Source: a virus
Taxonomy: Duplodnaviria; Heunggongvirae; Uroviricota; Caudoviricetes
Reading direction: 5' to 3' (one strand)
Length of the DNA: 64,000 nucleotides
IMG/VR virus record: IMGVR_UViG_3300005836_000011
Location: 1-64,000 of that record
The position numbers and the translations under genes are program-made. Below, in pieces: positions 33,079 through 56,706 of this stretch. The notes under the pieces were generated by a model, which did not search any database, was not told where the DNA came from, and was given only the letters and a program-made list of their open reading frames with translations. How positions within the stretch are numbered: the stretch's first letter is position 1; every line of letters starts with the position of its first letter.

Positions 33079-33789
33079 TTACGGTCGAGCAAAGGCCAAT
33101 CCGCTCCAGGAGAAATAACCACCGGGTGTGAACGCTCGAGCCGTTGTGGTGAGACCGAGATCGAAACGAAATCCTCTCTCCTCTATGACTGGTATCCAAT
33201 AGTCATCTGTCTGGCAATTCACATGGTGATGTCCACCTTGACCAGGAACGGCATGGGTCATCAGGAGCAGTCGGCCCCGCTGGAAGGCGGTGAGATAATT
33301 CTCCATGAACTCGTGCGCGACGTGCTCGACGAACTCGCAGCACCAGACGAGGTCGAAATCACGACCTGGGTCGTAGGGGCCAAGCGTGAAGTCATGTTGT
33401 TGAATCAGCGGGTCATGCGGTGGCAGCCCATCCACTCCATATGCCTCACATCCCAGACTCTTGAAGAAATGCACAGTCTTTCCCGCTCCGCATCCAACGT
33501 CGAGGATTGATCTGACATCACAGGTGTCTCGGAGCCACGTCCACAACTCGGGGTAGTAGCTCAGCGGATCCCCGTCGGGAAAATAGCCCCCGAGCCAAGG
33601 TCGTTCCGAGTCCACAACCTGTCCGTACTCAGAGAGCTCGCTCATGCCGAGAAAACGCCGTAGAACGCCCGACCGGATGCACCGCTTTCGTCGATCTGCG
33701 CCACGAATCCGGAAGAGCCGAGCCATTCCTCTAGCTCGTCCTTGACGAGCATGTGCGGGTGACCTGGATATGGAGGGATGTCGATCCAC
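33079..33789 (-). CDS. class I SAM-dependent methyltransferase
   Basis: Motif I ILDVGCGAGKTVHFF. Real start probably MSELSEYG at about 33645. Confidence 0.6.
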   Translation of the reverse strand: MDRHPSISRSPAHARQGRARGMARLFRIRGADRRKRCIRSGVLRRFLGMSELSEYGQVVDSERPWLGGYFPDGDPLSYYPELWTWLRDTCDVRSILDVGCGAGKTVHFFKSLGCEAYGVDGLPPHDPLIQQHDFTLGPYDPGRDFDLVWCCEFVEHVAHEFMENYLTAFQRGRLLLMTHAVPGQGGHHHVNCQTDDYWIPVIEERGFRFDLGLTTTARAFTPGGYFSWSGLAFARP

Positions 33790-34292
33790 TCGAAGATCCG
33801 AATAGTCGATGCCAACTCACGAGCTCGAGTGATGACGAGGGCAGGATCGGTGACGTGTTGTAGGACGTTGTAGATCCAGGCTTCGTCCAGGGTGTATCCG
33901 GTAATCACCTCGCCGGGCATCTTCCAATACTCAATACCCTCCGCCTCGTATCGTCCCAGCACCCAGGTCGGCCATTCAGCCGGATCAGCCACGATCGCTC
34001 GCCCGCGGTTGACGCACTTGAGCAGCAGACTCACCGGACCGCCACCGATGTCGATGACTGACTTACCACCCAGATCAAACACGGGCGGATGCCCCACGCC
34101 CCACTGGGCATAGAGTCCCATGCGAGCGGCATAGACGAGTTGTTTCTGCTCCTCCTGCAACGTGTTCGCGCAGGTCCCCCACCAGTCGGTCTCATACTCG
34201 CTCACGTGGACCAGCCCTCTCTTATCGCTTGATTGGTGCGCCACAGATAGGGCACATCGGATGGGCAAGCGTTTCTGGGAACTCATGCCCAC
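33642..34292 (-). CDS. SAM-dependent methyltransferase
   Basis: Gly-rich motif VIDIGGGPVSLL. Confidence 0.55.
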   Translation of the reverse strand: MGMSSQKRLPIRCALSVAHQSSDKRGLVHVSEYETDWWGTCANTLQEEQKQLVYAARMGLYAQWGVGHPPVFDLGGKSVIDIGGGPVSLLLKCVNRGRAIVADPAEWPTWVLGRYEAEGIEYWKMPGEVITGYTLDEAWIYNVLQHVTDPALVITRARELASTIRIFEWIDIPPYPGHPHMLVKDELEEWLGSSGFVAQIDESGASGRAFYGVFSA

Positions 34293-34304
34293 GCAGACAG
34301 ACGA

Positions 34305-35435
34305 TTATGCGGACCAACCTTCCCCCCAAAGAGTGTCGAGCTGGTCGAACCAGCGTGTAAACTTTTTCCCGACCGCGTCGAAGCCGTAGCGGTCGATCGC
34401 AGCCTTGCGAATCTTCTTGCGGTCCAGAGTCTCGGCGTACTCGACTGCGGCCACGGCCTGACTCAAGGTACTGAAGCGAGCGCCCACGTCGGGGGTGACG
34501 ATCTCGGTGAATGATCCCCAGTCGCTCGCTACCACAGGGGTTCCGCTCATCATCGCCTCGACCGCGACGCCTCCGAATGGCTCAACGTAGAGCGTCGGAA
34601 CGATTACCGCCGCTGCGTCGGCCATGAGATCGGCGCGATCGGCGAAGCGCACCTCACCAACGTATTCGATCCCCGGCGCCCTGAGAGATACCTCGGGAGC
34701 ATTGATCTCACCCTTCTTCCAAGTTGAGGGACCTGGTCCAGCGACGAGCAGGCGCCTCCCCATGCGCTCGGCGATCGCTGCAGCTACCTGCGGCCCCTTG
34801 CGCAGCACCACGCGACCGATGTAGAGCAGGTAGTCATCGCTCTTTTTGCGCTTGCGCTTCGCAGGGTCATGAAACTGTGTCTGGTCGAAGAAGTTGGGGA
34901 TGACAGAATCGAAGGCCCGCCCGTTGCGAATCTCGCGCATCCCGTAGACGTGGTGCATCCAGGCGTAGCTCTCGAAGGCGCAGAAGGGAGAGAAGATTCC
35001 TTCGTACCCGACTGCCCACTCGACGGTGATCGGATTGATGAACCCAGGGCCACCGATCGCATGAGCGATGGGATGATGCGCCCAGCCAGCGGTAACGCAG
35101 AGATAGTCGCGTGGCTGCACGCGCTCGCGGAGTGCGTCAATCGCCCTAGTGTTCGCCTCGAAGAAGTACGGCTCAGAGGGGAGCCATAGGAACGGACTTC
35201 GTACCGTATCGAAGCCATCCCCAAAGCCCCAGCGATCGCGATCTGCCTTTGTCGTGATGACGACGTGTTCATCAGGCTCGCAGGCGATCTCGTCAGGTCC
35301 ATAGAGGATGACCTTGCAGCCCTGCGCCTGCATCATCGGTACGAACTTCAGAACTTTCATCGAGTACGCGCATGAAGAATCTTTCTCGGTTAGCGTCGTG
35401 TGTGGCAATGCCACAACATGGAGAACGCGAGTCAC
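34305..35435 (-). CDS. GT-B fold glycosyltransferase (GT4/GT1 family)
   Basis: VIVPTLYVEPFGGVAVEAMMSGTPVV is the E-x7-E donor-binding signature of retaining GT4 enzymes. Confidence 0.7.
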   Translation of the reverse strand: MTRVLHVVALPHTTLTEKDSSCAYSMKVLKFVPMMQAQGCKVILYGPDEIACEPDEHVVITTKADRDRWGFGDGFDTVRSPFLWLPSEPYFFEANTRAIDALRERVQPRDYLCVTAGWAHHPIAHAIGGPGFINPITVEWAVGYEGIFSPFCAFESYAWMHHVYGMREIRNGRAFDSVIPNFFDQTQFHDPAKRKRKKSDDYLLYIGRVVLRKGPQVAAAIAERMGRRLLVAGPGPSTWKKGEINAPEVSLRAPGIEYVGEVRFADRADLMADAAAVIVPTLYVEPFGGVAVEAMMSGTPVVASDWGSFTEIVTPDVGARFSTLSQAVAAVEYAETLDRKKIRKAAIDRYGFDAVGKKFTRWFDQLDTLWGEGWSA

Positions 35436-35484
35436 AATTGTGAAGCGTACACATCGGTTCCGACGGTATCTCTAGAATTATTCC

Positions 35485-35892
35485 ATGGGACCGGGAGATC
35501 GTTTCGGTCGCCTCGTTCTTTTGGAGCGAGTCTCAACTGACAAGAATTACAACGTTAAGTGGCGCTGTCACTGCGACTGTGGGCGCGAGACACTTGTGTT
35601 TAGGCAGCACTTACGAAGTGGACGCAGCACGTCATGTGGATGCCGACGTAGCGAGGTAACCTCTGCGCGAAATTGGAAAGGTGACCGAGCGAGTTACAGC
35701 GCTTTGCACAAATGGATCGCGAGTCGCAAGGAGAGGTCGGGAATATGCAGCCATTGTGGGAATAAACGTCGTACACAGTGGGCGAACATCGACCATCGCT
35801 ATCGCCGCGATCTTAGCGATTGGATAGAACTATGTTCACCTTGTCATTGGAAATATGATCAGGCAACCAAGACCATTATTTCCATGGGGTGA
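35485..35892 (+). CDS. HNH endonuclease
   Basis: CHCDCG and CSHCGN Zn clusters, then NIDHRYRRDLSDWIELCSPCH. Opposite strand to its neighbours. Confidence 0.65.
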   Translation: MGPGDRFGRLVLLERVSTDKNYNVKWRCHCDCGRETLVFRQHLRSGRSTSCGCRRSEVTSARNWKGDRASYSALHKWIASRKERSGICSHCGNKRRTQWANIDHRYRRDLSDWIELCSPCHWKYDQATKTIISMG

Positions 35893-36130
35893 TCATCACG
35901 CCAAGATGGACCTGTGCAAACGGGCTCCATCCGCTGATCGTTGCGCTCCTGTCGACCGCAGAGCGGGCAGCGATACACGAATCCAGATCCAGTCTCGAAG
36001 AGGCCGGTCTCGATGAGGGCCTTGGCCGAATCGTCCTCACCGTCGTAGGCTCGTCGTTCGCGCTTGACCAAATACGGCTCCTTATGAGTGGGAAGCCAAA
36101 TAGGAGTTCCCTCGGTATGCCGTAGTTCAG

Positions 36131-36673
36131 TCATTGCCACTCCTCCACTGGGCATGTGATCCCTGAGAGAATACTCTCTCGATCAGCCTCGTATCCATTC
36201 GCGTACTTTCCATTATGCCACTCGATGAGGATCTGCGAGAATCTATCCATGAGGCCGTTCTCGATCAGATGAGGAAGGAGCACATATTCGGCTCCCTCGA
36301 TGTCGACCTTGAGCACGATCCGAGCCTCGGGCAGAGTCCTGACCCAGGCGGAGAAATCGAAGGCCTTGGTCCGTTCTTTCTCGTCGAAGTCGACATGAGT
36401 ACAGTTGCCTTGCAGACAGAGGCCGACCTCAATGTCATCCGTCCAAGCAGCCCTCCGAGCAGTGATGACGGTGGTTCCGAAGACACTGCCGACGGCATCC
36501 GGCAAGCCTGGGTGAGGATCAAAGCCAAAGAGGACGGTCGGTGAGAAGCGCTTGATCAGTGTTTGGATTGAGTCCTCTAGCCGATTTCCTCGCTGATAAC
36601 TACAGCAACCGAGGTCGATGACAATGTCGGTCTCGAGCGACGAGACTGAGTGAACGGCGAGCGCGTTACTCAT
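36131..36673 (-). CDS. FkbM-family methyltransferase
   Basis: IVIDLGCCSY...KVDIEGAEYVLL is diagnostic of the FkbM family. Confidence 0.6.
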   Translation of the reverse strand: MSNALAVHSVSSLETDIVIDLGCCSYQRGNRLEDSIQTLIKRFSPTVLFGFDPHPGLPDAVGSVFGTTVITARRAAWTDDIEVGLCLQGNCTHVDFDEKERTKAFDFSAWVRTLPEARIVLKVDIEGAEYVLLPHLIENGLMDRFSQILIEWHNGKYANGYEADRESILSGITCPVEEWQ

Positions 36674-37260
36674 TGCATCATCTTGTCGTGCTCTGGCAAG
36701 TGACTCGGAGGACCCTGTGGCCCTTTCTTCTTCGCGCGGTGCCGAGCTTGGTACTCACGCATCTTCTCACGGCGGCGGATCTGCTGTTCGGTGAGTCCTT
36801 CGGTGCTGTATCGCGAGTGTCGGCCACAGGTGCATCCTGGGGAGCAGGGCTTCGTGCCTCCGAGTCCCTGGGGTGAAGGCTCTGGACGTTCGTCGAACTT
36901 CTCTCTCGCTATCAGATATTGCTCGCGCTTCGGATCGCAGAGCCAGGGCCAGAGAAGATCAAAAAGAGTATCCACAGCCTTCCCGGAGACCTGATAACTC
37001 CACTGAGGATTCTGGGAGAGCAGATTCTTTGTCGGGATGTATGGACCGTAGATCTTGCCGACCCCCACCGCGCGAACGAAGCGATCAAGAGGTTCTCGCC
37101 TGTTCTGATTCACGCTGGCTCGCAAGTAGATATCGCTGGCTACGCGCTTCCTGCCGTCGTTCTTTCCGTAGCACCCACAGGAGCCTTCTCCGTCCCAGAA
37201 TCCCGCGGCCCAAGCAAGCTCCTCACGATGATATGCCGCCTGTGCGCGTTCATCACCCAC
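36670..37260 (-). CDS. LAGLIDADG-family homing endonuclease, free-standing paralog
   Basis: REELAWAAGFWDGEGSC, LDRFVRAVGVGKIY and QWSYQVSGKAVDTLFDLLWPWL are colinear with the 17226 gene. Confidence 0.65.
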   Translation of the reverse strand: MGDERAQAAYHREELAWAAGFWDGEGSCGCYGKNDGRKRVASDIYLRASVNQNRREPLDRFVRAVGVGKIYGPYIPTKNLLSQNPQWSYQVSGKAVDTLFDLLWPWLCDPKREQYLIAREKFDERPEPSPQGLGGTKPCSPGCTCGRHSRYSTEGLTEQQIRRREKMREYQARHRAKKKGPQGPPSHLPEHDKMMQ

Positions 37261-37293
37261 ACAGGCAGCATATCAGCGTCAGTGGATACCCAC

Positions 37294-37629
37294 TTAGCTG
37301 AAAATGTACCCTCCGATCGTCAGCATAACGATCGAGCCTGTTGCCGTGTCACTCTTGTAGCCGAGCCACGACACGGTAGTCGCCGGAACGACCCACCACC
37401 CGTTGAAGATGGCAGGAACAAGCGCCGTCAACGCGTAGGCATCGAACAGCCTCGTCGCAGCCGCGTCCGCGGTACCGACCGTAACCGTGAACGAGTGCGA
37501 TGCAGCAGAACTCGATGCGTGAATCGTGCGTAGAACGCCGGTGTTCGCCGCGGTCGAGGTCTGATACGCCGCTGTCGACGTAATCGACGTCATTGCCGGA
37601 ACGAGTGCAGCTGGATTGTAAGCAGCCAT
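37294..37629 (-). CDS. hypothetical small structural-type protein
   Basis: ORF track; Ala/Thr/Ser-rich. Confidence 0.4.
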   Translation of the reverse strand: MAAYNPAALVPAMTSITSTAAYQTSTAANTGVLRTIHASSSAASHSFTVTVGTADAAATRLFDAYALTALVPAIFNGWWVVPATTVSWLGYKSDTATGSIVMLTIGGYIFS

Positions 37630-37633
37630 GTGT

Positions 37634-38365
37634 TTATTTCACCTCCTGCATCATCTCGCGGTTCAGTTCCTTTAGCTCGTCATCGAGTTCGACGAGATTG
37701 ATGTCTTCTCCGATCGCGTTACGAATCGAGCCATGCGGATAGACCACCATCGTCTTGTGATGGCCGGGGTTGCAGGCAGGGACGAGGATGGGCGTATAGC
37801 CCGCCTCGCGCGCGCGCCAGGAGAAGGAGAGGTCTTCGCCAGTTGAGCGCTCGTCATTGACGGGCCAAAATGCTCCTGGCCCAATCTCCTCGAACACCTC
37901 TCGATGGACAAGCGTAAAGCCCATTCCAACAACGCCGACCTCAATAGGCTTTTCTGGCAACTGCACAAGATTGTGGTAGACCATCGGCTCGTCGTCGTTC
38001 CAAACTCCCACGACCTGGAATCCGTTCTCGAGGACATACGTTCCCGCATACACGCCAGGTCCGCGCTTTGCAGCTTCGTCATAGAGCGCAAAAACGTCTG
38101 CTGGCGTGAAGACCATGTCGTTGTCGACGGAGAGCAGCCATTCACGACCGGTGTCCATGAACTGGTTCTGCAGCTGATTGCGGTTGGCGTGGATATAGGG
38201 GCCAAAGACCAATAGCCAATCTGAGTTGAACCGATTGTTCGGATCGTTCTTGAACAGGTTGAGCACCGAGTGCATGAACCAGAAGTTCACGCTGGGACCT
38301 GTGATGAAGCCGAGGATGGAGTCGGGTTGATTCATGGCGCGGAGTGTAGGGCTTGTCTCGGTCAT
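37634..38365 (-). CDS. GT-A fold glycosyltransferase (GT2-like)
   Basis: LLSVDNDMVF DxD-type motif. Confidence 0.5.
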   Translation of the reverse strand: MTETSPTLRAMNQPDSILGFITGPSVNFWFMHSVLNLFKNDPNNRFNSDWLLVFGPYIHANRNQLQNQFMDTGREWLLSVDNDMVFTPADVFALYDEAAKRGPGVYAGTYVLENGFQVVGVWNDDEPMVYHNLVQLPEKPIEVGVVGMGFTLVHREVFEEIGPGAFWPVNDERSTGEDLSFSWRAREAGYTPILVPACNPGHHKTMVVYPHGSIRNAIGEDINLVELDDELKELNREMMQEVK

Positions 38366-39729
38366 TACAGGCCCACTGCCCTTCGCATGCTACTGATCAA
38401 GCACATCGAGAGACCGGGCGCGAGCCTAGGCCGCCTCTCGCTCCACCACTCGCGCACCCACTTCATCAGCACGCCCGGATCGTTGAAGTTCACGAACCCC
38501 TGCTCCAGCACCAGCACCGTCGCGACGTACTCGGTCACTGACTCGGTCAACGTGATCCACGAGTCGCCAGCCGCGCTCGCGCTCGTACCGTTGTAGGAGA
38601 AGCGCAAGGTCTGCCCGGTGACCACCGCGCCGAAGCCGTCGTCATAGAACACACGAAGCCTCAACCGTTGACCATCGGTAACCGACACATCTGGCCCGAG
38701 GATCTGAAGTTGCCAGGTGGAGGTATCGGTGATCGTCAACTCGTTAGAACCTGCGGTTGTATCAAAGGCCATCGTGCACACCCCGAACAACGTCGCACCA
38801 CTGCCGTCGTTGTTCACGACGTGCAACTCGGCGTGCAACTTGGCGTGCACTGTAGTCGTGCAATAGGCGCGCAGATTTACAAGTACGACCCCTGAGAGTG
38901 TGAAGGCGTTGAGTTGCCGCGAGTACCACTCGATTGCGGTGCCGCCACTCGTCCACTGCGTCGGACTGACCGGCCCAGCCGCGCTCGTCATCGTGGCTTC
39001 GACCGAACCGGAGCCGCGACTCGTCCACATCTCCTTCTCTAGGTTCGCCCCGACATCTGGCCCGGCCGTGTCGGTCAGGAACATCTGCGTTCCGGCGGGA
39101 TCGCTCGTCACGACGGAGAACGTTTCGTTGAACTGGATGTAGGTGTCGCCGTCAGCCGCCGCAGTCGGTCCGTTCGTGTCCACTGTGAAGGTGAACCCGG
39201 TCCCCATCGTGGTCGAGTCGTCTCCGTAGATCCTCAGTCGGATACGGTCGCCCTTCTTCATATCCGTCGAAGTAGGCGTGACCGTGAAGTTCTGAACGGC
39301 TACCGACGTTCCCAACTCGGTCGTCCTCGCTGTCTGCGCGATAGTGCTCCTGGCAAGGGTCGTGCCGTCGATCCTTTCGATGATCGCGTTGATCGCGACG
39401 TTCGCGCTCATGTTGCTCTCAAGGGCCCAGAAGTTGAGCGTGATCGTTCCCGAGATGGTCACGTCCGCGGCCAGCGGATCGCTCACCCAGTCAACGCTTC
39501 CGACCTCGATCCCGTTCGTTGGCCCCGCGACGGTGTTGGACGTTTCGGCTTGCTTGGTCCACGTCCCGGTCGGCGACCCCTGTTGATTCAGCCGTCTCGG
39601 TCCAGACCAGTAGAGCGATGTGCCTGCGAGAGTGTTGCTCGGTGTCAGATGTACGCCGCCCTTTATGCACGCCGCCCCAGATGAAAGAGCGACACCGGGA
39701 TCGGTCACAGGATAGAAGCGGGTCGCCAT
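38365..39729 (-). CDS. protein with tandemly duplicated beta-sandwich-like domain
   Basis: Internal repeat: RIRLRIYGDD...FTFTVDTNG...AAADGDTYIQFNETFS versus RLRLRVFYDDGF...LRFSYNGTSASAAGDSWITLTESV. Confidence 0.5.
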   Translation of the reverse strand: MATRFYPVTDPGVALSSGAACIKGGVHLTPSNTLAGTSLYWSGPRRLNQQGSPTGTWTKQAETSNTVAGPTNGIEVGSVDWVSDPLAADVTISGTITLNFWALESNMSANVAINAIIERIDGTTLARSTIAQTARTTELGTSVAVQNFTVTPTSTDMKKGDRIRLRIYGDDSTTMGTGFTFTVDTNGPTAAADGDTYIQFNETFSVVTSDPAGTQMFLTDTAGPDVGANLEKEMWTSRGSGSVEATMTSAAGPVSPTQWTSGGTAIEWYSRQLNAFTLSGVVLVNLRAYCTTTVHAKLHAELHVVNNDGSGATLFGVCTMAFDTTAGSNELTITDTSTWQLQILGPDVSVTDGQRLRLRVFYDDGFGAVVTGQTLRFSYNGTSASAAGDSWITLTESVTEYVATVLVLEQGFVNFNDPGVLMKWVREWWSERRPRLAPGLSMCLISSMRRAVGL

Positions 39730-39953
39730 CTAACTCCTCCACCAGCGTCGCCAGGGTCGCCATGCTGGCCGCTCGGCATTCAGGTTGCGCTGGCCGGGCC
39801 AGCCGTCGAGGCGGAAGATAGCCCGCCGAAGGATCGGCGTCTGCAACGTGTCGAAGCGCTGCGCGTGGTCACGCAGATCCCGCTCGGCCTGGTCGATCCG
39901 CACCGACAACGAGGCGATGTGCTGTTCCGCCTCCTCCAACGAACGTACCTGCG

Positions 39954-40385
39954 TCATCCCGTGAAACTCACCACATTGGAGTCGGGGCGCGTGTAGTCGC
40001 CCGCCCCGCTCGGCTGGTAGACCCATGCTGAGCAGGCGACCCCAGGTCGCGCGAGGGCGGTGAGGAACGTCGGCACCGTCTGCCCGAAGTAGGGTGAGAG
40101 TGGGTCGGTGACGATCAAGCTGGTGACCCAGCCCGTGTCGCCCACGGTGGAGAATCCCTCGCAGCGCACGACGACCTGCGCGAGCCACCAGATATTCTGA
40201 CGCCGGTTTGACCGCTGCACCTCGACGGTCACGGTGTCGTAGGGCGAATCCGTCGCCACGCTTGCCACACGAACGGTGAACCCGTTGTCGTTGCCCTTCG
40301 CGGTCGCGCCCGCACTCAGGACGAGCCCCGCTACGAGCACGGCGGCCAGCGACGCAATCCTGCTCATCACTGCCTCCTTAGACAT
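39954..40385 (-). CDS. secreted protein (signal peptide)
   Basis: [23 protein letters not shown] looks like a signal peptide. Confidence 0.45.
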
Positions 40386-45180: not shown

Positions 45181-45260
45181 AGTGACCTCCGCAGCTCGGC
45201 ACCGCCCTCACTCACGAGGGCAGTGCCGTGGCCTAGCGGTAAACCTCCGAAGAGTTCAAA

Positions 45261-46091: not shown

Positions 46092-46113
46092 GTTGAGCCT
46101 CCTCGCCTATGTC

Positions 46114-46773
46114 TTATGACGTTGCCGTGACAGCGGCCGATGCGCAGTCCGCAGTCGGCGGATCGACGTTGGTCTTCCACCAGCCACCTTCACTGATGTC
46201 CTGACCATCTGGCGGACCGTCCCCGTAAGGACCGTCGCCCCATTGCGAGTTCGTGCGCGAGAAGCCTTCCACCGTCGGGTTAGCGATTGCTTCCTCGAAG
46301 GTGTTGTCTCCCAGGCGCCACACGGTCTTTGGGAAGACCCAGTGGATCCAAGGATAGGTGCCGTCCTGTCCTGAACCGACGATGTGCTTCGTCCAGAACT
46401 CAAGTCCGACAGCAGGCTCAGCCTCGTCGCAGGCCAGTGCGCCAGCAAATGCCTGACCAACGACGTCGGCTCCATCCTCGATTGTTGGAGAACCAAGCAG
46501 CATGGACATCAACTCTGGCTCAAGAGCTGCCTGGGCGAGGGTGAACTCGAACCAGTTAAACGTGTTATTCGCCTTGAAGCGAGCGATGGAACAACCGCAG
46601 CCGTTACGGCTGGAGAAGGTTGCGCCATCCTCGATGTTGGGCCTCAGAGCAAGCGAAATGATGTTGTCTGAGACGTAGGAGTTGTTAGCTCCGGCAACTA
46701 CGTTCCCTGCCGCATCGACCACTGTCGCGCGGAGAGCGCAGATTCCGAAAGAAACACCACAATTAACAGCCAT
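46114..46773 (-). CDS. virion structural protein
   Basis: ORF track; immediately downstream of the capsid gene. Confidence 0.45.
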   Translation of the reverse strand: MAVNCGVSFGICALRATVVDAAGNVVAGANNSYVSDNIISLALRPNIEDGATFSSRNGCGCSIARFKANNTFNWFEFTLAQAALEPELMSMLLGSPTIEDGADVVGQAFAGALACDEAEPAVGLEFWTKHIVGSGQDGTYPWIHWVFPKTVWRLGDNTFEEAIANPTVEGFSRTNSQWGDGPYGDGPPDGQDISEGGWWKTNVDPPTADCASAAVTATS

Positions 46774-46879
46774 GTCTAGAGCACCTCCGGTGGCTCAGTG
46801 ACGGTACGGACGATGGAGAGGAGGCGGATATCGGTGATCTTTGTCTTCATCTCTATCCGCCTCTCTCCGTTGATTTCCC

Positions 46880-48742: not shown

Positions 48743-48754
48743 CTAGGAACCTAG
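48743..48754 (+). promoter_or_regulatory. CTAGGAACCTAG 12-mer copy
   Basis: Exact copy 125 bp upstream of the capsid start. Overlaps the stop of the 48751 gene. Confidence 0.5.
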
Positions 48755-49287
48755 ACAGCCGTCCAGTCAAGTTCGAGCGGATCAGAATCACCAATGTAAT
48801 TAAACGCGCGCCTTCGTTTGTTTTCTGTTCCGCTCGGAACATTGGAACCTTCGCTCCACTTCACGGAAAGTGTGTCGTCGGGATGCTCGACGATTGAAGG
48901 AACCGTTGCGAGCACGGTTTGACGAGTAAATTTCATCCACGATCCCACAACAGCATCATCAGATCGTGGATTCGGCAAACCCGGAAGCTTTGCGTCCTTC
49001 GACCACTCAAGAAATTCCTCAACCTTTGCGCGCGGCCAGAGAACGGCAACGACGGGAAGAAAGTCCTGAAACCAGATCGTGGAGTAACGATTGCCGTTGC
49101 GCGCAGCTTTCATATAGTGCTTCAGCGTCTTCGTTCTCGTGGCGCTTACGAACAGGCATACCGGAACATCTGGATGAACTTCAGCAATGACCTCTATCGC
49201 GGCAGCGAAGTTCTGACAGACGACGGCGTCGTCTTGGATGACGACCGCGTGCGAGTCCGATGTCTCGAGGGCTGTCTGTAAACACAA
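48751..49287 (-). CDS. putative glycosyltransferase-like protein
   Basis: VVIQDDAVVC acidic motif. Low-confidence call. Confidence 0.3.
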   Translation of the reverse strand: MCLQTALETSDSHAVVIQDDAVVCQNFAAAIEVIAEVHPDVPVCLFVSATRTKTLKHYMKAARNGNRYSTIWFQDFLPVVAVLWPRAKVEEFLEWSKDAKLPGLPNPRSDDAVVGSWMKFTRQTVLATVPSIVEHPDDTLSVKWSEGSNVPSGTENKRRRAFNYIGDSDPLELDWTAV

Positions 49288-49417
49288 GCGATAACCGCGC
49301 CAGGGACTCGGCGGAGGAGATCCATCGTCCTCGACCGTTACCGCTGGCGGGATATCCGCTAGAAGCCGTTGTCGAAGCTCCGCTCGACTAGGGACGCTCT
49401 GTACAACGTAAAGCAGA

Positions 49418-49906
49418 TCAACTCGCTACAATATAGCCACTAGCAGCACCGATGACATAGGTCGTCGTAGCTGGGATCAGATAGTTCCCGTTCACATCTC
49501 GTAGATCCCAAGCACAGACAGGAACAAGCGTGGTGTCTGTACCGCTAGTGGTATCGGGGTCATACGCTAGAACGGCCTTAGCCCAGGTTGCTCCTGCTCC
49601 AATTGCTGTGAACGTCTGATTCGGGAAGGAGAGAGTCGTCGTATGGGCGGCGCTATCAATTACAGGAGCGGAAACGTCCGCGTCGGTCAGGACCTTACGC
49701 GCATAGTTGGCATTCGCAACCTCATCATTGGTTGCCGCAAGTAGCGTTGAGATCAAGGCATATGTGCGCAAGACGGAATCTACTTCCAATCCGGCCAAGG
49801 CAAGTACTAAGAGAACGAACCCAGCGTTCGTCGGATCGTTGTCGTTCACTCGGTTGTGGAATTCAACCTCGCGTCCAAGAGCAATATCGAAAGAGAAGTT
49901 CGCCAC
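49418..49906 (-). CDS. hypothetical head-associated protein
   Basis: ORF track; between the protease and capsid genes. Confidence 0.4.
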   Translation of the reverse strand: MANFSFDIALGREVEFHNRVNDNDPTNAGFVLLVLALAGLEVDSVLRTYALISTLLAATNDEVANANYARKVLTDADVSAPVIDSAAHTTTLSFPNQTFTAIGAGATWAKAVLAYDPDTTSGTDTTLVPVCAWDLRDVNGNYLIPATTTYVIGAASGYIVAS

Positions 49907-50061
49907 TACTGCACCGCCGGAAGCTCAATGGTGACTGTTTCTCCACTAGTACTCACTGACATGGGCTGAACGGAACTCTGAATCGAGACAGGTGGAAGAT
50001 CAATATGCACAGGTGGATTAGTAACTGTGATAACGAGCGGAAGTACGATCGTCTTCGACAT

Positions 50062-51885
50062 CTACTTATAGTCGTCGAAAATCTTTCCGTTACAACGGAG
50101 CGATCGCACGCGCTTCTTGATGTGAGCGACAGCTGCAGCCTGATCCTTGGCCCTGCCTTGAGCATGAATGGCGTTTTCAGCATCAGCGCAGTTTGCAATC
50201 GGGAAGCTTCCATCAGGCATCGCCTGGCCCGATTTCGCCATTCTCTTGCGATCCTCTTCGCTATAGGCGAGCTCAAGTGAAGCGACAGCACGTCTTTCAA
50301 CGAGTTCTTGCATTCGCCGGCGGTAAGTCGGGACATCCATCGGGATGTATTCATCCTCGAGTTTGTATTCCTCGCTATAGCCACTTGCGATGAGCGTCTT
50401 AACCTCTTCCTCGCCATTCTCCGCGCTCGCAATCAGCGCTTCGATACGAGGGATCGGGAACCCTGGAACGGGGACGGATAGTACGGCTACCAATTCATCC
50501 TCTCTCCAGTCACCAGACGGCGGGTTGGCCCGTAGATCACGCACTTTCTCTGCCGGAGCGTCCGAACGAACAACTCCGGAGAGCCAAATGCCGTTTTTCC
50601 CATCTTCTGCACGAACGAAAGCGGCAACACAGCCTGTCTTGTCATAGTGCTCCATCGCACCAGGTCGACCTAGAACGACTGAGGCATGTCCACCCTTTGC
50701 ATTTCCACCCTGACCCACAGTGATGCGACCGACTGGAATGAGATCACCCTCTGCAGTCTCGATCTCACCCACATGGAAGTACGAATATCCACTGCGCGAG
50801 CGTGGGGCGCGCTCACAGCTCGCAAAAGCGGGGTGACATTGGTTCCAGAGCGCCAAATGTCCATACACGTGACCATCCGAGGTCACAGTCAGTGGCGTGG
50901 GCGTATCCGGCTCCTCCGTATAGAACCAGTCCTTCGGTGGCTCGAGGGGTGCAGCACCTGCAGCCGCGGCAGTAAGCACATCCTTGGGCTTCATTCGGAA
51001 CCCATATGCCGACGCAACGAGCGCATGGCCTGGAACGAGGACGATTGATGCTTGCTCGAAGGCTGGAATGGACACGATGGTTAGTGCGGCGATCTTTCCA
51101 CCGATACCGATGAGATAAGAGCCTTCCATCAATGCCTGGAAGTCGATCTCCTCCTCAGGAACCTCTTTGAGCGTTTCGGGGTCAAAAGCAGCAATACGAT
51201 CCGGCGGCATGTCAATGGACACTCCAGCACCGTTTTCCATCATGCGCTCAGCATCCTGCGCAAATTTCGATGTATCAAAGGTTCCTGTCGCCCATACGAT
51301 GACTGCTTCGTCTCGCACGTCCATGAGATTGAATTCGTTGCGCTGCGCAAAATCTGCGATAGGGATATAGTCGATCGACTCAATACGTCCGCAGCTCTCG
51401 GCTCCCATATGTCCCTGCTCTGTTGCTGTTTGCACCATGACTGGGATGGGCAAGTCGCGATTACTGATCTCGTCCGGAATGAGATAGCGACCATCACTGG
51501 TGGGTGAACCGATAACAGCGAGCACTCCCTCGAAGGCGGGTCCACGCTCAGCCGTATCAGTCCCACCTGGCGTGACCTGGAAGCTTCCGAGGGGATTGGT
51601 CACATAGTTCCAAGTTGTGGTGACCCCGGACGCGCTAGGCAGGAACCAGTATGTGGTTGGCACGGTCACTGTCGTGTTTGTTCCATCCATATTCATGATG
51701 GTAAAGGTAGCTCCTTCTACGGACGCTCCGTTTCTTCGAGCCTCTTCTGCGTAGAGCGCACTTTGTTGCTTACGTGCCCCTTCCTTCGAATCGTGACAAC
51801 CAAGCGATCGTCCACTAGCACGATTATTTACTTCACGATGGACGCACCATTGGTTTCCTTTCTTAACGACGACGTACGGCATCAC
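50062..51885 (-). CDS. capsid maturation protease-like protein with extra N- and C-terminal domains
   Basis: Position between portal and capsid. DGHVYGHLALWNQCH matches a prohead-protease-like His motif. The N-terminal MMPYVVVKKGNQWCVHR domain is DUF2188-like. GTG-ATG start with RBS ggagg. Confidence 0.5.
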   Translation of the reverse strand: MMPYVVVKKGNQWCVHREVNNRASGRSLGCHDSKEGARKQQSALYAEEARRNGASVEGATFTIMNMDGTNTTVTVPTTYWFLPSASGVTTTWNYVTNPLGSFQVTPGGTDTAERGPAFEGVLAVIGSPTSDGRYLIPDEISNRDLPIPVMVQTATEQGHMGAESCGRIESIDYIPIADFAQRNEFNLMDVRDEAVIVWATGTFDTSKFAQDAERMMENGAGVSIDMPPDRIAAFDPETLKEVPEEEIDFQALMEGSYLIGIGGKIAALTIVSIPAFEQASIVLVPGHALVASAYGFRMKPKDVLTAAAAGAAPLEPPKDWFYTEEPDTPTPLTVTSDGHVYGHLALWNQCHPAFASCERAPRSRSGYSYFHVGEIETAEGDLIPVGRITVGQGGNAKGGHASVVLGRPGAMEHYDKTGCVAAFVRAEDGKNGIWLSGVVRSDAPAEKVRDLRANPPSGDWREDELVAVLSVPVPGFPIPRIEALIASAENGEEEVKTLIASGYSEEYKLEDEYIPMDVPTYRRRMQELVERRAVASLELAYSEEDRKRMAKSGQAMPDGSFPIANCADAENAIHAQGRAKDQAAAVAHIKKRVRSLRCNGKIFDDYK

Positions 51886-53663
51886 GCTGCCTCCTTCATT
51901 TCAAGGTGCCCTGAAAAATGGGGAGGCACCTGCGGAAACTCGACGTTATACAGCGTGCGTGCGGCGAGTACTTCGATCATCTCTCCGACTGCATTGGCTG
52001 ATTCATCCGAGTATCCCTTGACTTTGAGAAGCGAACGCAGGTTGTCCGCTCCGCCCGCAACGAGTGCGAGCGCATTTGACAGACCCATCTCTTTCAAGAT
52101 CGTCTTTCCCAAGGCAGGAGCCACTTGCGCATAAGGCTCAGCCGCAACAGATGCGATGCGATCTGGGAACTGCTTTGCTTTCTGATGAATGCGAATGCCG
52201 GCCAGTTCTCTACAACGCATGAGCGCCAATTCAAACGCAGCGAACTCTCCATCAATAGATGCCGTTACCCTAGTCTTTCGGCCGGAGTCACCTTCGGGAC
52301 CCGGCAATGGGGGGCCTTGTTCGGCGACCTGCTGAGGCGGTGGTGCTATCTGCCCTCCATGCAGAAGTGATGGATCGCGCATCTTGACTGCAAGCCATAG
52401 ATCTTTCTCTTCCTCGCTTGGCTTGAAGTCCTTTGGAATATCTTTCATGGCTCTATAGCCATCATCAGAGATCTGACCACGATCCCATGCCTTGTCTGCA
52501 TCGTCGGAGCGGTCAGGTTTCATCACAACACCGGAGTCGTCATATGTCACAACGACAGATTCCCAATCGGCAAATCCCGCTTCGAGCAGAGCTGGCCGTA
52601 GATAGCTCGCGGTGATGTCATCACAGAACTGCTGAGCGATCGGCGCTCCATGCGACTTCCACATATCGAGCAAAATCTGCAAAGCGGCCCAATGGTTCGT
52701 ATGCCCGAGGCCAAGGAGCGCCTCGGGCGGAAAGTCAATGCCGCGCGCAATGCGTTCAACCGCTTCTTTGCGTAGCGCAGATTCCATGTAGTCGTTCTGG
52801 GGATCATGCATCTGCACCCAGCGAATGCGGTCGATGTAATCGTAAGCTGCTTCGAGTAGCCACGGGGCCACTGCGGCAGGTGACCCCGCGTTCTCTACCT
52901 GCGCTTCTAGGTGGCGGCCTAGATCCGAGATAAGACCCTGATCTTCAACTGAGTCGTCCGCCGTCTCCGCCTCTGGGGGACTGATCTCTGCCGGAATCAG
53001 CAACATGCCGCTCGTTGCACGCGTAGTCGCGGTGGACAAGACAGCGGTCGTGAGCTTAATGAGTTCCTCTGCTACATGTCCCTCAACGATCGGTCGCATT
53101 GGTGAATCCGCTTCACCTGTACGTCGGGGATGTGGGGTCCAGAAGCGATAGACGACAGCTTCATCCGGACCATACTCATGCTTCTCCCCAACAACTGGCT
53201 CCCAGGTGATCTTCTTAATTCGCATTCCATCGCGTTCGACATCCAGTTCGTCGTTCCAAACGAAAAGCCACGTCTCATCGGCTGAACCTAAGTCGTAGCC
53301 AAAAAGATTTCCTTCTCCCGTCGCGAACATCAGCCTGCCATAGTTGCTGAGGATCTGCGAATGTCGACCTCCCGGATCGCGAACCTGATTGAGAAGATCA
53401 ACTGGTGGTCCACTCGTAATCGGCTTCAGCTCTCCTTGGTCATCCAGATTTGCCGGAAAGAGCCGTATCTGCTTGAGCGTCCTGGAATAGAAACGTGATG
53501 CATAGTTCAGTTCCGGAACAAGGTCGATATAACGCAGCGCACGTCCCTGCCAGGACATGCTTTGGCGATCTTTATAGCCGCTATCTAGCGTATCGCCGCT
53601 CCCCAACTGGACAGCAGACGAGGTAAGAACACGCCTACGCCGTGCTCGAAGTGGGAGCGTCAA
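51882..53663 (-). CDS. portal protein
   Basis: 593 aa; located between TerL and the protease. Overlaps the protease start by 4 nt. Confidence 0.6.
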   Translation of the reverse strand: MTLPLRARRRRVLTSSAVQLGSGDTLDSGYKDRQSMSWQGRALRYIDLVPELNYASRFYSRTLKQIRLFPANLDDQGELKPITSGPPVDLLNQVRDPGGRHSQILSNYGRLMFATGEGNLFGYDLGSADETWLFVWNDELDVERDGMRIKKITWEPVVGEKHEYGPDEAVVYRFWTPHPRRTGEADSPMRPIVEGHVAEELIKLTTAVLSTATTRATSGMLLIPAEISPPEAETADDSVEDQGLISDLGRHLEAQVENAGSPAAVAPWLLEAAYDYIDRIRWVQMHDPQNDYMESALRKEAVERIARGIDFPPEALLGLGHTNHWAALQILLDMWKSHGAPIAQQFCDDITASYLRPALLEAGFADWESVVVTYDDSGVVMKPDRSDDADKAWDRGQISDDGYRAMKDIPKDFKPSEEEKDLWLAVKMRDPSLLHGGQIAPPPQQVAEQGPPLPGPEGDSGRKTRVTASIDGEFAAFELALMRCRELAGIRIHQKAKQFPDRIASVAAEPYAQVAPALGKTILKEMGLSNALALVAGGADNLRSLLKVKGYSDESANAVGEMIEVLAARTLYNVEFPQVPPHFSGHLEMKEAA

Positions 53664-53815
53664 TGTGACTAACCTGTCTTTTCCGGAGGTGGTGCCTTCG
53701 GAGCCTTAGGAACCCTGGGCAGTCTCTTACCCTTTTTACATCCGCAGGGGATCTTAATCGCCTCCTTATTTGCTCAGCGCTGAACGAAAGAGTAGGGACT
53801 AGTTCGGTCGTTACG

Positions 53816-54169
53816 TCATTCTGCAGGATCTAGCTTCGAACGAATGACCCCAACGACGCACGAAATAGCGAACCAAACACCGATGGCGGTAACGACTTGG
53901 CTCGAAGAGTGGGGGTGATCGCCAACCGTAAACATCCATCCCACATATACGAGAAGGCTTATCCAGAAGCCCATACACCATGCGCACGTTAGAAACGCTG
54001 CGAGAGAAGCTCGATAGGTGAGTGGAACAGGATCATTGTCTTCCCATGTCTGCGGAAGACGAACGATAAAACGGCGAGGGCGTTCAAGAATCTCATCCTC
54101 GGCAAGTAGACGCCACAGGCGATATGCCACGAGCGAAAGCAGGATGAATTGATAAATCGGAGGGATCAT
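53816..54169 (-). CDS. membrane protein (3 TM helices)
   Basis: ORF track; hydrophobic helices. First gene of the cassette between TerL and portal. Confidence 0.45.
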   Translation of the reverse strand: MIPPIYQFILLSLVAYRLWRLLAEDEILERPRRFIVRLPQTWEDNDPVPLTYRASLAAFLTCAWCMGFWISLLVYVGWMFTVGDHPHSSSQVVTAIGVWFAISCVVGVIRSKLDPAE

Positions 54170-54669
54170 TCTAAGTTCCTAAAGACTGCCAGAGATTCTG
54201 TGACCTCTACGTTCTCTACGTTCGTAACGGCAGCCAAACCACTTGTGACACCGAAGCGGCCATAATCGTGAAAGGCTATCCAACCTCCGGGCTTCACGAG
54301 ATCATGCGCGATTGCGTAGTGGCGTATGACTGAATCCTCGTCATGGGCGGCGTCGATGAACGCTCCATCGAAGTCGATGGGAAGCTCGTGGACGACTTCT
54401 TCAAACTTACCCACGATCGTGATGACGTTTGCGATCCCGTAGCGGTCGAGGTTGTAGTGATAAACACCAAGGGTTGGCTTAGCGCCAGCGTGAAAATCCC
54501 CTTGGTGCCAATCCACTGCCCACACCTTCTCGGCAACAGACGCTAAGCAGATCGTAGAACGTCCCCATTGCGATCCAACCTCCAGCACCTTTTGTCCCTG
54601 CGCCAGTTCTGCGAGCTTCTCACATTCTGCCTTCTCGACCGAAGAAGGAATCTCAGCCGCAAAGATCAT
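54166..54669 (-). CDS. class I SAM-dependent methyltransferase
   Basis: VLEVGSQWGRST motif-I-like sequence and ...WIAFHDY. Confidence 0.55.
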   Translation of the reverse strand: MIFAAEIPSSVEKAECEKLAELAQGQKVLEVGSQWGRSTICLASVAEKVWAVDWHQGDFHAGAKPTLGVYHYNLDRYGIANVITIVGKFEEVVHELPIDFDGAFIDAAHDEDSVIRHYAIAHDLVKPGGWIAFHDYGRFGVTSGLAAVTNVENVEVTESLAVFRNLE

Positions 54670-55304
54670 ATTTTCATCCCCCGATCCGCCCAGCTACGAA
54701 TGTAGTACTCATCATCTGGACTTTCAAATGCAATTGGCTGAATACATGGACTCTTCACGCGCGCCCAGGTATATCCCATTCTCCGGACGGCGGGAGAAAA
54801 GAGCGAGTCTTCGGTATAGCCCCTCCCATGAGCCTCGGCGAGTTCTGGCCAGGGGCGCTCGTCGTAGCGCAAGCCAGCATCCCATAGTTCTCGGCGAATA
54901 ACACAGTTTCCCCCAACATTCTGCGGGGAAATGCGTCCCTTGCCACACTCCTCCTCCGAAGTGCGTAGTCCTACCTGTCCAATCTTCTGTGTGCGGAATG
55001 TGCGCTCAACTTCCTCGCACCAGCCGGGAAGGAAGATGAAATCGTTATCTGCGCGGTGCAGGAAATCGGCGTCCATAGGAGCGCGCTCCCAGCCGTGATT
55101 AGTGGCAAATCCCGGATAGTGATTGCGCGTAAGCGCAATGTACGGATGATCCCATGTATTGAGCCACTCTTTTGTCCCGTCACCAGAACCGTTGTCGATG
55201 ACGAGATAGGTGAAAGGGACGGTTACGGTATCGAGGTAGGAAGCAATAGCTCGTTCAGTGAGTTCCCGCCGGTTGTAGGTAATGAAGACGGTGTGGATCT
55301 TCAT
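54666..55304 (-). CDS. GT2-family glycosyltransferase
   Basis: FITYNRRE...LVIDNGSGDGT...ADNDF. Confidence 0.65.
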   Translation of the reverse strand: MKIHTVFITYNRRELTERAIASYLDTVTVPFTYLVIDNGSGDGTKEWLNTWDHPYIALTRNHYPGFATNHGWERAPMDADFLHRADNDFIFLPGWCEEVERTFRTQKIGQVGLRTSEEECGKGRISPQNVGGNCVIRRELWDAGLRYDERPWPELAEAHGRGYTEDSLFSPAVRRMGYTWARVKSPCIQPIAFESPDDEYYIRSWADRGMKI

Positions 55305-55909
55305 GCCAAAACATCCGCGCGCGCAATCTCATATGCCTTCATGTACTCAGGGTGATCGCGTTGCAGCACATGATGCTTGGACTCCTCATTGTAGTGAGCC
55401 ACATAAATCGCTTTTGGCACCTTCACAATACGCGCTCCTGCGCGTACGCAGCGTGCCCAGTAGTTCCAGTCCTCGAGTCCATGTGGATGTTCACGAAACC
55501 CTCCAATCTTTCGATGCAATGCAGCCGGAACAACAGTTCCAATGATAAGCCAGTTGCCTGTTTCAAATGAGCATTCCGGGAAGAAGAACGCACGTCTCGA
55601 TTTTCCTCTCCGTATCTGTTGTACCGCCGGCGTTAGAAGAAGCGATCCACCCCCTTCTCGCTCGCTCGCTCGCTCTATAGCCTCCACAAACCCAGGAGCT
55701 AGTTCATCGTCAGCGTCGAGAAAACAGAGCCAGTCTCCTTTTGCTTTTGCAGCAAGTTCGTTCCGCGCAGAAGCAATCGTTCCATTGGGATCATGACCAA
55801 CAAGAATCTCTTCACAGGTAAAATTAATCACCGAGCGGAGCGCGCGCCGTCGAGCAAGTTTCTCCCAGTCTTCACTACCATAGGTTGCAATCAAAATCGA
55901 GAGCTTCAT
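55301..55909 (-). CDS. GT2-family glycosyltransferase
   Basis: ILIATYGSE...LCFLDADDEL. Confidence 0.65.
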   Translation of the reverse strand: MKLSILIATYGSEDWEKLARRRALRSVINFTCEEILVGHDPNGTIASARNELAAKAKGDWLCFLDADDELAPGFVEAIERASEREGGGSLLLTPAVQQIRRGKSRRAFFFPECSFETGNWLIIGTVVPAALHRKIGGFREHPHGLEDWNYWARCVRAGARIVKVPKAIYVAHYNEESKHHVLQRDHPEYMKAYEIARADVLA

Positions 55910-56706
55910 TTCTTCCTCTTTCTATTTCTATATTGAAAGAGCGCTTTGCGTCTCTCTTCTCGCATCGCAGCACGTTCAGCAATAACCGCTTCCCTGCGTG
56001 CCTTGCGATCAAGCTGAGTTCCTGAGCGCATACGCTTCAGATACAAATGTCCATCCGAACCTGTAGCCCGAAGAGCCTTCTCATACGTTGCATCTAATTT
56101 CGATTTATTCCAATTCGGATGAAGATGCTCTACTTTGGAGCGTTTCGAGAATGCCCATTGACCACGCCTGATCGCAGTCTGAACGAACTCATTGTCTACA
56201 AACTGATGGTCATAGAGTTCGCAGAAAACGAGGCCAGTGTTGTCGATTGTACCGCCGTACTGATTGATATAGGTACGACGGATGAGTGAGTGGGTAGAGT
56301 GACCGCCACGCTTCACGAGGGCATTACCCATATCGTCGGTTCCCACGACACCGACCTCGCGCCTATCCCCCAGCTTAATGGCATAAACATCCCAACCTGG
56401 ATGGAAGCGAAGATCGTCGGCAGCCTGAAAGACCCAAGGAGCATCTGTCTGTGGGAAGGCCCAATTAATCTTGCGCGCAAAATCCGCCTTTCCCGGTTGC
56501 CAGTTGGTGATCAGCGTTGTGGCGTCAGCTGCGCGACAAGTCTTGATCTGTTCCTTGTCCGAGGGTGAGCAGATAAAGAAGACGCGATATGAATGTGACG
56601 TTACCTTGACCGACTCCATGAATGGATGAACGTTCTGGGGACGTGCTAGAACCGGAACCAGGATGTCGATGTCACTCATAAGCTCGAGAGGTGAAACCCT
56701 GAGCAC
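55906..56706 (-). CDS. glycosyltransferase-like protein
   Basis: ORF track. Operon context with two GT2 genes. Acidic motifs YDHQFVDNEF. Confidence 0.4.
   Translation of the reverse strand: MLRVSPLELMSDIDILVPVLARPQNVHPFMESVKVTSHSYRVFFICSPSDKEQIKTCRAADATTLITNWQPGKADFARKINWAFPQTDAPWVFQAADDLRFHPGWDVYAIKLGDRREVGVVGTDDMGNALVKRGGHSTHSLIRRTYINQYGGTIDNTGLVFCELYDHQFVDNEFVQTAIRRGQWAFSKRSKVEHLHPNWNKSKLDATYEKALRATGSDGHLYLKRMRSGTQLDRKARREAVIAERAAMREERRKALFQYRNRKRKK

Follow-up and report, generated by a model that had tools for sequence, protein, structure and literature searches.

Glycosylation of mycobacteriophage virions lowers antibody recognition, and to our knowledge phage-encoded virion glycosylation has so far been demonstrated only in a few mycobacteriophages. 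The closest described systems are those of Che8 (Cluster F, gp108-110) and Corndog (Cluster O, gp35-38). Corndog carries an O-methyltransferase and three glycosyltransferases (GTs) between its portal and protease genes (PMC4351075), and a passage of PMC11600133 citing Freeman 2023 states that the Corndog enzymes modify capsid and tail tube; a passage of PMC12619734 citing the same work locates the glycans of mycobacteriophages on the C-terminal ends of the capsid and tail tube subunits, and PMC12363180 describes Che8 gp110 and Corndog gp38 as the two GTs essential for capsid glycosylation. Among collagen-like proteins, the stalk of Bacillus BclA is O-glycosylated, which is thought to help hydration and stability (PMC8968730), and Mimivirus encodes collagen-like surface proteins together with its own glycosylation machinery (PMC9614988, PMC4691112). 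Here, we analysed a 64,000-nt window (the whole stretch of DNA under study) of the IMG/VR record IMGVR_UViG_3300005836_000011, the genes of which were scanned with Pfam, PHROG and NCBIfam, and in which two groups of GT and methyltransferase genes and the gene of a 1600-aa collagen-like fibre lie within the structural block of a tailed phage. We propose, with a probability of about 0.6, that these genes form two layers, a conserved virion glycosylation of the Che8/Corndog type and an accessory island acting on the fibre. Glycosylation of virion proteins by the conserved enzyme set is, as a prediction from homology, well supported, and it would, by analogy, be plausible that the island enzymes modify the collagen stalk.

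The structural operon occupies the minus strand from ~18.5 kb to 60 kb of the window, which appears from its proteins to belong to an uncultured siphovirus with actinobacteriophage relatives. Its capsid protein shares 31-36% identity with those of Actinomycetia phage DSL-LC01, of Forza-like phages of Gordonia and of large phages of Arthrobacter and Microbacterium (822 actinophage matches in total). A megablast search of the 45-60 kb region against isolated phages gave no nucleotide match, and IMG/VR contained a clade of uncultured relatives with portal identities of 40-77% (contigs and loci are designated by L numbers). The gene order capsid, tail tube, phrog_779, variable slot and head-tail adaptor (window 45261-48619 and 31883-33019), in which the tail tube gene thus stands ahead of the connector genes, was kept in DSL-LC01, Forza and all uncultured relatives.

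Enzymes related to those of Che8 and Corndog

As proposed in the initial annotation of this DNA, one set of enzyme genes lies between the terminase large subunit (TerL) and portal genes, and the other between the capsid and tail tube genes and the head-tail adaptor. The first region, continued to the tail tube gene, is composed as follows.

57394-59019, minus strand: TerL, upstream boundary of the TerL-portal cassette (phrog_38, 6.8e-74; weak Pfam Terminase_6C)
55906-56706, minus strand: GT-like gene, first of a conserved trio, probably of GT-A type (phrog_14945 glycosyltransferase, 2.5e-9; Pfam Glyco_tranf_2_3, 0.0011, below cut-off)
55301-55909, minus strand: GT2 glycosyltransferase, gp108-like (PF00535, 2.2e-9, above cut-off; LDADDE motif, with DADD as the DXD motif)
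54666-55304, minus strand: GT2 glycosyltransferase (PF00535, 1.6e-10, above cut-off)
54166-54669, minus strand: Methyltransf_24 S-adenosylmethionine (SAM) methyltransferase of the sugar O-methyltransferase type (PF13578, 1.7e-13, above cut-off; weak O-methyltransferase PF01596)
53816-54169, minus strand: small membrane protein of the DUF1360 family (PF07098, 1.2e-7; phrog_781)
51882-53663, minus strand: portal (phrog_776, 1.6e-81)
50062-51885, minus strand: MuF-like protein or head maturation protease (phrog_859, 1.2e-72; phrog_18402)
49418-49906, minus strand: phrog_26662 gene (PHROG)
48751-49287, minus strand: gp110/gp38-like GT, GT25-like (phrog_854 "glucosyltransferase", 3e-17)
46880-48619, minus strand: major capsid protein with an acidic, scaffold-like N-terminal region (phrog_777, 1.8e-65)
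46114-46773, minus strand: major tail tube protein (phrog_792)

The best-anchored enzyme gene of the block is 48751-49287, which had been listed initially as a weaker GT candidate. It was found between protease and capsid in every relative examined, tblastn matched solely the right-end GTs of Cluster F mycobacteriophages, and a clade profile built from 10 sequences recovered Che8 gp110 (51.2 bits), Forza gp94 (44.7) and Corndog gp38 (38.9). As a homologue of Che8 gp110 and Corndog gp38, its product is a candidate initiating virion glycosyltransferase. The open reading frame (ORF) starts with TTG, and 43 in-frame codons upstream of it are conserved with the relatives and with Che8 gp110; the frame is open to about 49416, where a CTG (49416-49414) stands right after the stop of the preceding gene, so that translation may begin at a non-canonical codon or by reinitiation, or the start codon may have been lost.

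The genes of the TerL-portal cassette, from the GT-like gene 55906-56706 through the two GT2 genes and the methyltransferase to the DUF1360 gene 53816-54169, are joined by four consecutive 4-nt overlaps. Homologues of the GT-like gene (41-53% identical) occupy the same position in L006, L008, L009 and L014-L018, in which the GT trio lies just downstream of TerL and a variable insert separates it from DUF1360 and portal; the DUF1360 gene sits just upstream of the portal gene in L014-L018, and the Methyltransf_24 gene has a homologue in L017. The family profile of 55301-55909 matched Che8 gp108 (29.5 bits, GT2 half) and Forza gp93. For 54666-55304, homologues 46-69% identical were present in related viral contigs, and a tblastn search against isolated phages gave no match. 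The cassette is thus conserved in at least nine related uncultured phages, and its location is not an oddity of this genome; the TerL-portal position, described initially as unusual, is so relative to model phages only and is a clade trait, with a close precedent in the portal-protease cassette of Corndog (PMC4351075).

The corresponding insert of L007 (151-6830) contains a sugar-metabolism cassette much larger than that of the window, with a 3'-phosphoadenosine 5'-phosphosulfate (PAPS) reductase, a papain-like protease, another GT2, two methyltransferases and a UDP-glucose dehydrogenase. A Ro60/TROVE and vWA protein (8145-9770, E 1e-41 to 1e-48) was also found in the TerL-portal insert of L007. 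Papain-family cysteine protease domains were seen both in the distal tail region of the window (19225-20073) and in the TerL-portal cassette of L007 (1581-2399).

By Pfam, Che8 gp108 consists of GT2 and Methyltransf_24/TylF domains, gp109 is GT2-like and gp110 belongs to GT25, and in Corndog gp35 is Methyltransf_24/TylF, gp37 GT2-like and gp38 GT25. Extending glycosyltransferases of GT2 type accompany the essential GT in both systems (gp108 and gp109 in Che8, gp36 and gp37 in Corndog). Similarly, the window has GT25-like, GT2 (the N-terminal half of gp108), further GT2-like and Methyltransf_24 enzymes, and as in Corndog their genes lie within the head-gene block. Relatedness among phages with actinobacterial hosts and a major virion subunit with Ser at its extreme C-terminus are shared as well. 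The mycobacteriophage precedent invoked initially therefore holds, through the gp110/gp38 and gp108 homologues and through an enzyme of the Corndog gp35 family; the Methyltransf_24 enzyme showed no direct pairwise similarity to Corndog gp35 or Che8 gp108, and the link is the shared Pfam family only. Unlike in Che8 and Corndog, the set is split, with one GT between protease and capsid and the rest between TerL and portal, and the GT2-methyltransferase fusion of Che8 gp108 is represented by separate genes. Moreover, one GT-like gene is additional, neither the second island (GT4, GT-A-like and three methyltransferases) nor the giant collagen-like fibre is matched in either mycobacteriophage, and the identities amount to 23-27%.

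This homology bears on two other targets that have been considered for such enzymes. Remodelling of host envelope glycans by some or all of the GTs and methyltransferases, leading to superinfection exclusion or to no re-adsorption of progeny to lysed cells, is how GTs of phage host-recognition clusters are commonly interpreted (PMC7029224, PMC12801897), and could accommodate the small DUF1360 membrane protein translationally coupled to the cassette as well as the UDP-glucose dehydrogenase and PAPS reductase of L007. We consider it improbable, given that the window enzymes are directly homologous to enzymes acting on virion proteins (PMC12363180), that family scans revealed no GT with predicted polyprenol-linked or membrane-GT features, and that the genes are embedded in and coupled to head genes, not part of a moron or lysogeny region. 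DNA modification is the classical role of phage GTs, and hypermodifications with various glycans are known (Pyle 2024, as cited in a passage of PMC12619734), so that the GTs might instead hypermodify the phage DNA with sugars against restriction, with the methyltransferases acting on DNA or nucleotides. This seems very unlikely: the window showed neither a hydroxymethylase gene nor another gene for base modification, the GTs have the protein-glycosylation enzymes of Che8 and Corndog as homologues, and the methyltransferases match small-molecule or sugar O-methyltransferase families and not DNA methyltransferase families. A dedicated C5 DNA methylase is encoded separately at 10753-12354, which makes it unlikely that the methyltransferases of the block are DNA methylases. 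Host-envelope and DNA targets are thus both disfavoured by the homology to protein-glycosylating enzymes, the small-molecule methyltransferase families and the separate C5 DNA methylase.

By analogy with the mycobacteriophages, the clade-conserved enzymes of the preferred reading would be expected to act on the C-termini of the tail tube and capsid proteins, not on collagen. The tail tube protein (46114-46773) is the likeliest candidate substrate, as a lead only. It ends in ...CASAAVTATS, and the terminal Ser was invariant in 31 homologues; Gly-Ser ends occur in the Che8 capsid, the Che8 tail tube and the Corndog capsid, and the L013 tail tube homologue ends in ...VTPGS. The protein is far more conserved than its neighbours (76-89% identity in most relatives and 55% in L013, versus 33-74% for the capsid and 40-77% for the portal) and has 531 metagenomic homologues, the top 120 of which are all at least 69% identical. 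Six cysteines are invariant (C5, C12, C59, C61, C115 and C210, some of them in a GCGC motif), an uncommon feature of tail tube proteins.

The collagen-like fibre and the accessory island

The second set of enzyme genes forms an island (33079-40188) immediately downstream of the collagen-like fibre gene. This part of the block comprises the following genes.

45261-46091, minus strand: phrog_779 conserved structural-block protein (7.9e-31; kept in all relatives)
40378-45180, minus strand: 1600-aa collagen-like fibre (Gly-X-Y repeats)
39954-40385, minus strand: 143-aa signal-peptide-like ORF (translation and junction analysis), followed by small ORFs
38365-39729, minus strand: 454-aa protein with two related beta-rich halves (internal repeat)
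37634-38365, minus strand: probable GT-A-fold glycosyltransferase (Pfam GT2 models, 6e-4 and 3.6e-3, below cut-off; phrog_1574, 1.8e-12; phrog_34859 GT, 9.5e-7; SVDNDM motif)
37294-37629, minus strand: 111-aa ORF
36670-37260, minus strand: HNH endonuclease (phrog_5046, 1.7e-12)
36131-36673, minus strand: possible FkbM-family methyltransferase (PF05050, 0.0074, and TIGR01444, 2.9e-4, both below cut-off; VIDLGC motif)
35859-36155, minus strand: 98-aa ORF
34305-35435, minus strand: GT4 (GT-B fold) glycosyltransferase (Glyco_trans_1_4, 2e-15, and Glycos_transf_1, 4e-14, above cut-off; phrog_3408, 2e-51)
33642-34292, minus strand: phrog_3603 class I SAM methyltransferase (8.5e-53; VIDIGGGP motif)
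33079-33789, minus strand: Methyltransf_23 SAM methyltransferase (PF13489, 2.7e-8, above cut-off; weak match to the sugar O-methyltransferase NanM)
31883-33019, minus strand: head-tail adaptor, downstream boundary of the island (phrog_783, 9.8e-55; 79% identical in L010)

The 1600-aa collagen-like protein, reported initially in the same block as the enzymes, contains 398 G-X-Y triplets, the longest run being 243. Thr (212) and Ser (104) occupy 316 of the 398 Y positions (79%), Ala is found at 204 X positions, and Pro totals just 51 residues, the stalk consisting mostly of Gly-Ala-Thr and Gly-Val-Ser. A conserved N-terminus of ~50 aa is followed by a short G-X-Y run, a 165-aa globular insert, ~1150 aa of G-X-Y repeats and a 165-aa C-terminal domain, which is a jelly roll resembling carbohydrate-binding modules (CBMs) of families 6, 35 and 36 (CBM6/35/36-like). 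The hypothesis that the ORF was an assembly artefact was rejected, as the DNA repeats are 67-78% identical while the peptide repeats are near-identical. Homologues of the C-terminal domain of ~155 aa were considered as stand-alone decoration proteins; this was rejected for P0054, a gene-calling fragment of a long collagen ORF, and the other short homologues may be such fragments as well. A comparison of the globular insert with the 454-aa protein gave no significant similarity (E=0.25), and the idea that they are related was dropped.

The N-terminal ~50 aa (...YVDPPAGG) and the C-terminal ~165 aa were kept in L007, L010 and L013, and the stalk varied from about 615 to 1600 aa. The N-terminus probably anchors the fibre to the virion, and the CBM-like tip would probably bind a host surface glycan. 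A conserved N-terminus, a variable stalk and a CBM-like tip argue for discrete host-binding fibres and not for the glycosylated collagen "fibre coat" that had been pictured initially, of which the link between enzyme and collagen genes has stood (in cyanophages and in the locus survey described below). A fibre role for such proteins is supported by L041, where a tail-fibre assembly chaperone is encoded after a collagen-like ORF of 1467 aa. At the standard collagen rise of 0.286 nm per residue, the fibre would, if fully triple-helical, measure ~340 nm and exceed the ~235-nm tail implied by the 1564-aa tape measure, both lengths being calculated from standard rise-per-residue values.

Like the BclA proteins of Bacillus and C. 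difficile, the fibre has an N-terminal domain, a Thr-rich Gly-X-Y stalk and a C-terminal globular domain, and sugar-modifying genes lie nearby. The analogy, also drawn in the initial annotation, fails at the C-terminal domain: a C1q/TNF-like tip of the BclA type was looked for in the fibre and was not found, the tip being CBM6/35/36-like. Moreover, the stalk is low in Pro, no homology was seen outside the repeats, and the window protein is that of a phage. Mimivirus, which resembles the window in encoding both collagen-like proteins and glycosylation machinery, differs in that it is a giant virus of eukaryotes, links its glycans to hydroxylysine and uses different enzymes.

The 143-aa ORF 39954-40385 overlaps the stop of the collagen gene by 8 nt, and its N-terminus resembles a signal peptide; secreted proteins or lipoproteins would not be expected within a structural block. 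An alternative ORF at 39730-40188 (152 aa, Arg/Trp-rich) was judged largely spurious, and 39954-40385 with a possible 75-aa ORF was preferred.

Within the island, further gene overlaps extend the start/stop coupling noted initially for the enzyme genes. The region 33079-34292, first read as a single methyltransferase ORF, does encode methyltransferase functions, split over two coupled ORFs that use different frames. The most likely start of the Methyltransf_23 gene is Met49 (33645), which would place it in an ATGA overlap with the ORF before it. That upstream ORF, 33642-34292, is 48% identical to ACG-2014f gp018, which adjoins the GT4 of that phage, and its homologue in L007 (4012-4602) passes the Pfam thresholds of Methyltransf_23 and Methyltransf_11; this and the VIDIGGGP motif led us to count it as the fourth methyltransferase. 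The 454-aa protein contains a beta-rich unit of ~200 aa twice, as an internal duplication (27.5% identity across 138 aa, E=3.7e-8), and had no family match in the Pfam and PHROG scans. An HNH endonuclease gene lies mid-island, and a 46%-identical HNH fragment (2-316) was found near the GT4 homologue in L023; the presence of HNH genes near GT4 loci hints at mobility of the island.

Across both regions, three GTs and two methyltransferases passed the curated Pfam thresholds, so that the initial assignments of the GT4 gene, the two GT2 genes in 54666-55909 and the methyltransferase 54166-54669 proved sound. For 37634-38365 and 55906-56706, the proposed GT function is probable, with PHROG GT matches and Pfam values below cut-off, and the FkbM assignment of 36131-36673 persists as weak matches; 48751-49287 likewise stayed below the Pfam cut-offs and counts by them as a probable GT. 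Single-sequence searches against solved structures were uninformative for the phrog_3603 protein, the fibre C-terminal domain, the FkbM and GT-A candidates, 55906-56706 and 48751-49287, and the weak enzyme candidates were therefore not upgraded. The NCBIfam scan gave far-sub-threshold matches and no specific enzyme names. Since promoter and terminator scans of the block were at chance level and say nothing on operon structure, we infer late co-expression of the enzymes with the structural genes from strand and spacing.

The closest homologues of the window GT4 in isolated phages were cyanophage enzymes (32-34% identity). In ACG-2014f_Syn7803C8, a collagen triple-helix protein (gp016) is followed by gp017, gp018 (phrog_3603), gp019 (GT4) and a 2-oxoglutarate (2OG)-Fe(II) oxygenase, and in S-CBWM1 the collagen-like "tail fiber" gp121 precedes the GT gp122. 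The window resembles these cyanomyovirus modules (gp016-gp019 and gp121-gp122) in having GT4 and phrog_3603 genes on the same strand as the gene of a long, Gly-X-Thr-rich collagen-like protein, here 5-7 kb downstream of it. It differs in that the modules belong to cyanobacterial myoviruses and lie among baseplate and tail-fibre genes, in that the 2OG-Fe(II) oxygenase is not found in the window, and in that the non-collagen fibre domains are unrelated; in BLAST comparisons of the fibre with gp016 and gp121, matches were confined to the Gly-X-Y repeats. In IMG/VR, 16 of 35 GT4-homologue loci carried a collagen-like ORF (at least 15 G-X-Y triplets), as did 13 of the 19 loci with at least 5 kb upstream. 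Among the control loci the count was 1/12 (L007, which is related to the window and has the fibre gene at the corresponding place), or 0/11 when only loci independent of the fibre clade were considered; this control set was small.

Weighing of the two-layer proposal

According to the proposal, the first, clade-conserved layer would consist of the gp110/gp38-like GT acting together with the coupled cassette of GT-like, GT2, GT2 and Methyltransf_24 enzymes. These would build a short, partly O-methylated glycan on the exposed C-termini of major virion subunits, added in the cytoplasm during assembly, the tail tube being the likeliest target and the capsid possibly another. The second layer, accessory and variable, would be the island with its GT4, probable GT-A, three SAM methyltransferases and HNH endonuclease, the enzymes of which may O-glycosylate and methylate the 316 Thr/Ser residues at the Y positions of the stalk and thereby stabilise, hydrate or mask it. 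Modification of the stalk is plausible from its extreme content of Thr and Ser, from the repeated association of the genes and from the example of BclA. The sequence establishes the enzyme families, the homology to the Che8 and Corndog enzymes, the order and coupling of the genes, the architecture and folds of the fibre and the patterns of conservation; the substrates, the glycan chemistry, the timing and where the fibre sits on the virion are what we infer from these.

Several observations weigh against this reading. The phage is known from metagenomic sequence alone. The three further GT candidates and the FkbM candidate depend on sub-threshold Pfam or NCBIfam matches, plus PHROG matches; the conserved 43 N-terminal codons of the gp110-like ORF contain no ATG, GTG or TTG; and the capsid C-terminus of the window (...FPALV) is unlike the Gly-Ser ends of Che8 and Corndog. 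In L041, the GT4 lies 3 kb from the collagen-like tail fibre, with the fibre chaperone and other genes between them, so that the GT4-collagen association could reflect shared residence in host-recognition regions, the GTs of which have been proposed to alter host surface glycans (PMC7029224). Finally, L010, the nearest relative (portal 70-77% identical), has a collagen-like gene and lacks the island 33079-40188, in place of which three unrelated genes (one with Laminin_G_3) stand directly ahead of the adaptor. The island is therefore accessory and not required for the fibre, and gene order upholds conservation in the clade for the cassette and the gp110-like gene and not for the island. At the same slot DSL-LC01 has nothing and Forza a 985-aa non-collagen protein, which together with L010 identifies it as a variable region.

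The situation in L010 and the HNH endonuclease within the island would also suit a phage in which tail tube and capsid are glycosylated as in Che8 and Corndog and the fibre is not, the island being a mobile accessory module with another target, which might be a small molecule or either the 454-aa or the secreted 143-aa protein. Thr-rich Y positions are indeed common in unmodified bacterial collagens (32-48%), and most prokaryotic collagens are reported as non-glycosylated (PMC8968730). We nevertheless regard an unmodified fibre as unlikely, as members of the GT4 family are found repeatedly next to collagen-like ORFs in phage lineages that are not related and a Thr/Ser content of 79% at the Y positions is extreme.

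Other genes of the window and significance of the enzyme sets

The remaining features of the structural block were the following.

59358-59786, minus strand: terminase small subunit, TerS (PHROG/Pfam scan)
31378-31980 and 30854-31444, minus strand: two small genes
29677-30114, minus strand: chaperone-like gene
24721-29415, minus strand: tape measure, 1564 aa (PhageMin_Tail, 3.8e-41)

The 687-nt gap between TerL and the first GT (window 56707-57422) contained small ORFs only, among them one of 120 aa (57060-57422) that overlaps the stop of TerL and contains zinc-ribbon-like motifs (CPGC...CNLC). A 739-nt gap among the tail genes was occupied by a 268-aa plus-strand ORF (30072-30878), and at the equivalent place L010 had a reverse-oriented 241-aa gene (15648-16373). 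The plus-strand region of the window encoded an SPFH/Band 7 protein (4701-5624), the C-5 cytosine DNA methylase (10753-12354) and an Rpf-like transglycosylase-domain protein (15871-16542).

A broader idea, to which we give little more than tentative credence, is that the GT4 and phrog_3603 pair, joined in the window by additional GT and methyltransferase genes, is a portable cassette, common to cyanomyoviruses and actinophage-like siphoviruses, for O-glycosylation and methylation of Thr/Ser-rich stalks in the collagen-like receptor-binding fibres of tailed phages. If true, phages would have their own equivalent of the BclA nap and of mimivirus fibrils, and many GTs of host-recognition regions would act on the phage's own fibres and not on host lipopolysaccharide or DNA. 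The core described here is a further member of the known phage virion-glycosylation systems; the split layout, the island and the CBM-tipped giant fibre are new, and do not amount to categorically new biology. It makes the Che8/Corndog enzyme set a conserved, operon-embedded trait of a widespread clade of uncultured environmental phages, which argues for a role in ordinary phage ecology (stability, adsorption or shielding) and against an oddity limited to a few isolates. That GT4 and methyltransferase genes repeatedly accompany long, Thr-rich collagen fibres offers a testable alternative to the assumption that such enzymes modify the host surface or DNA.

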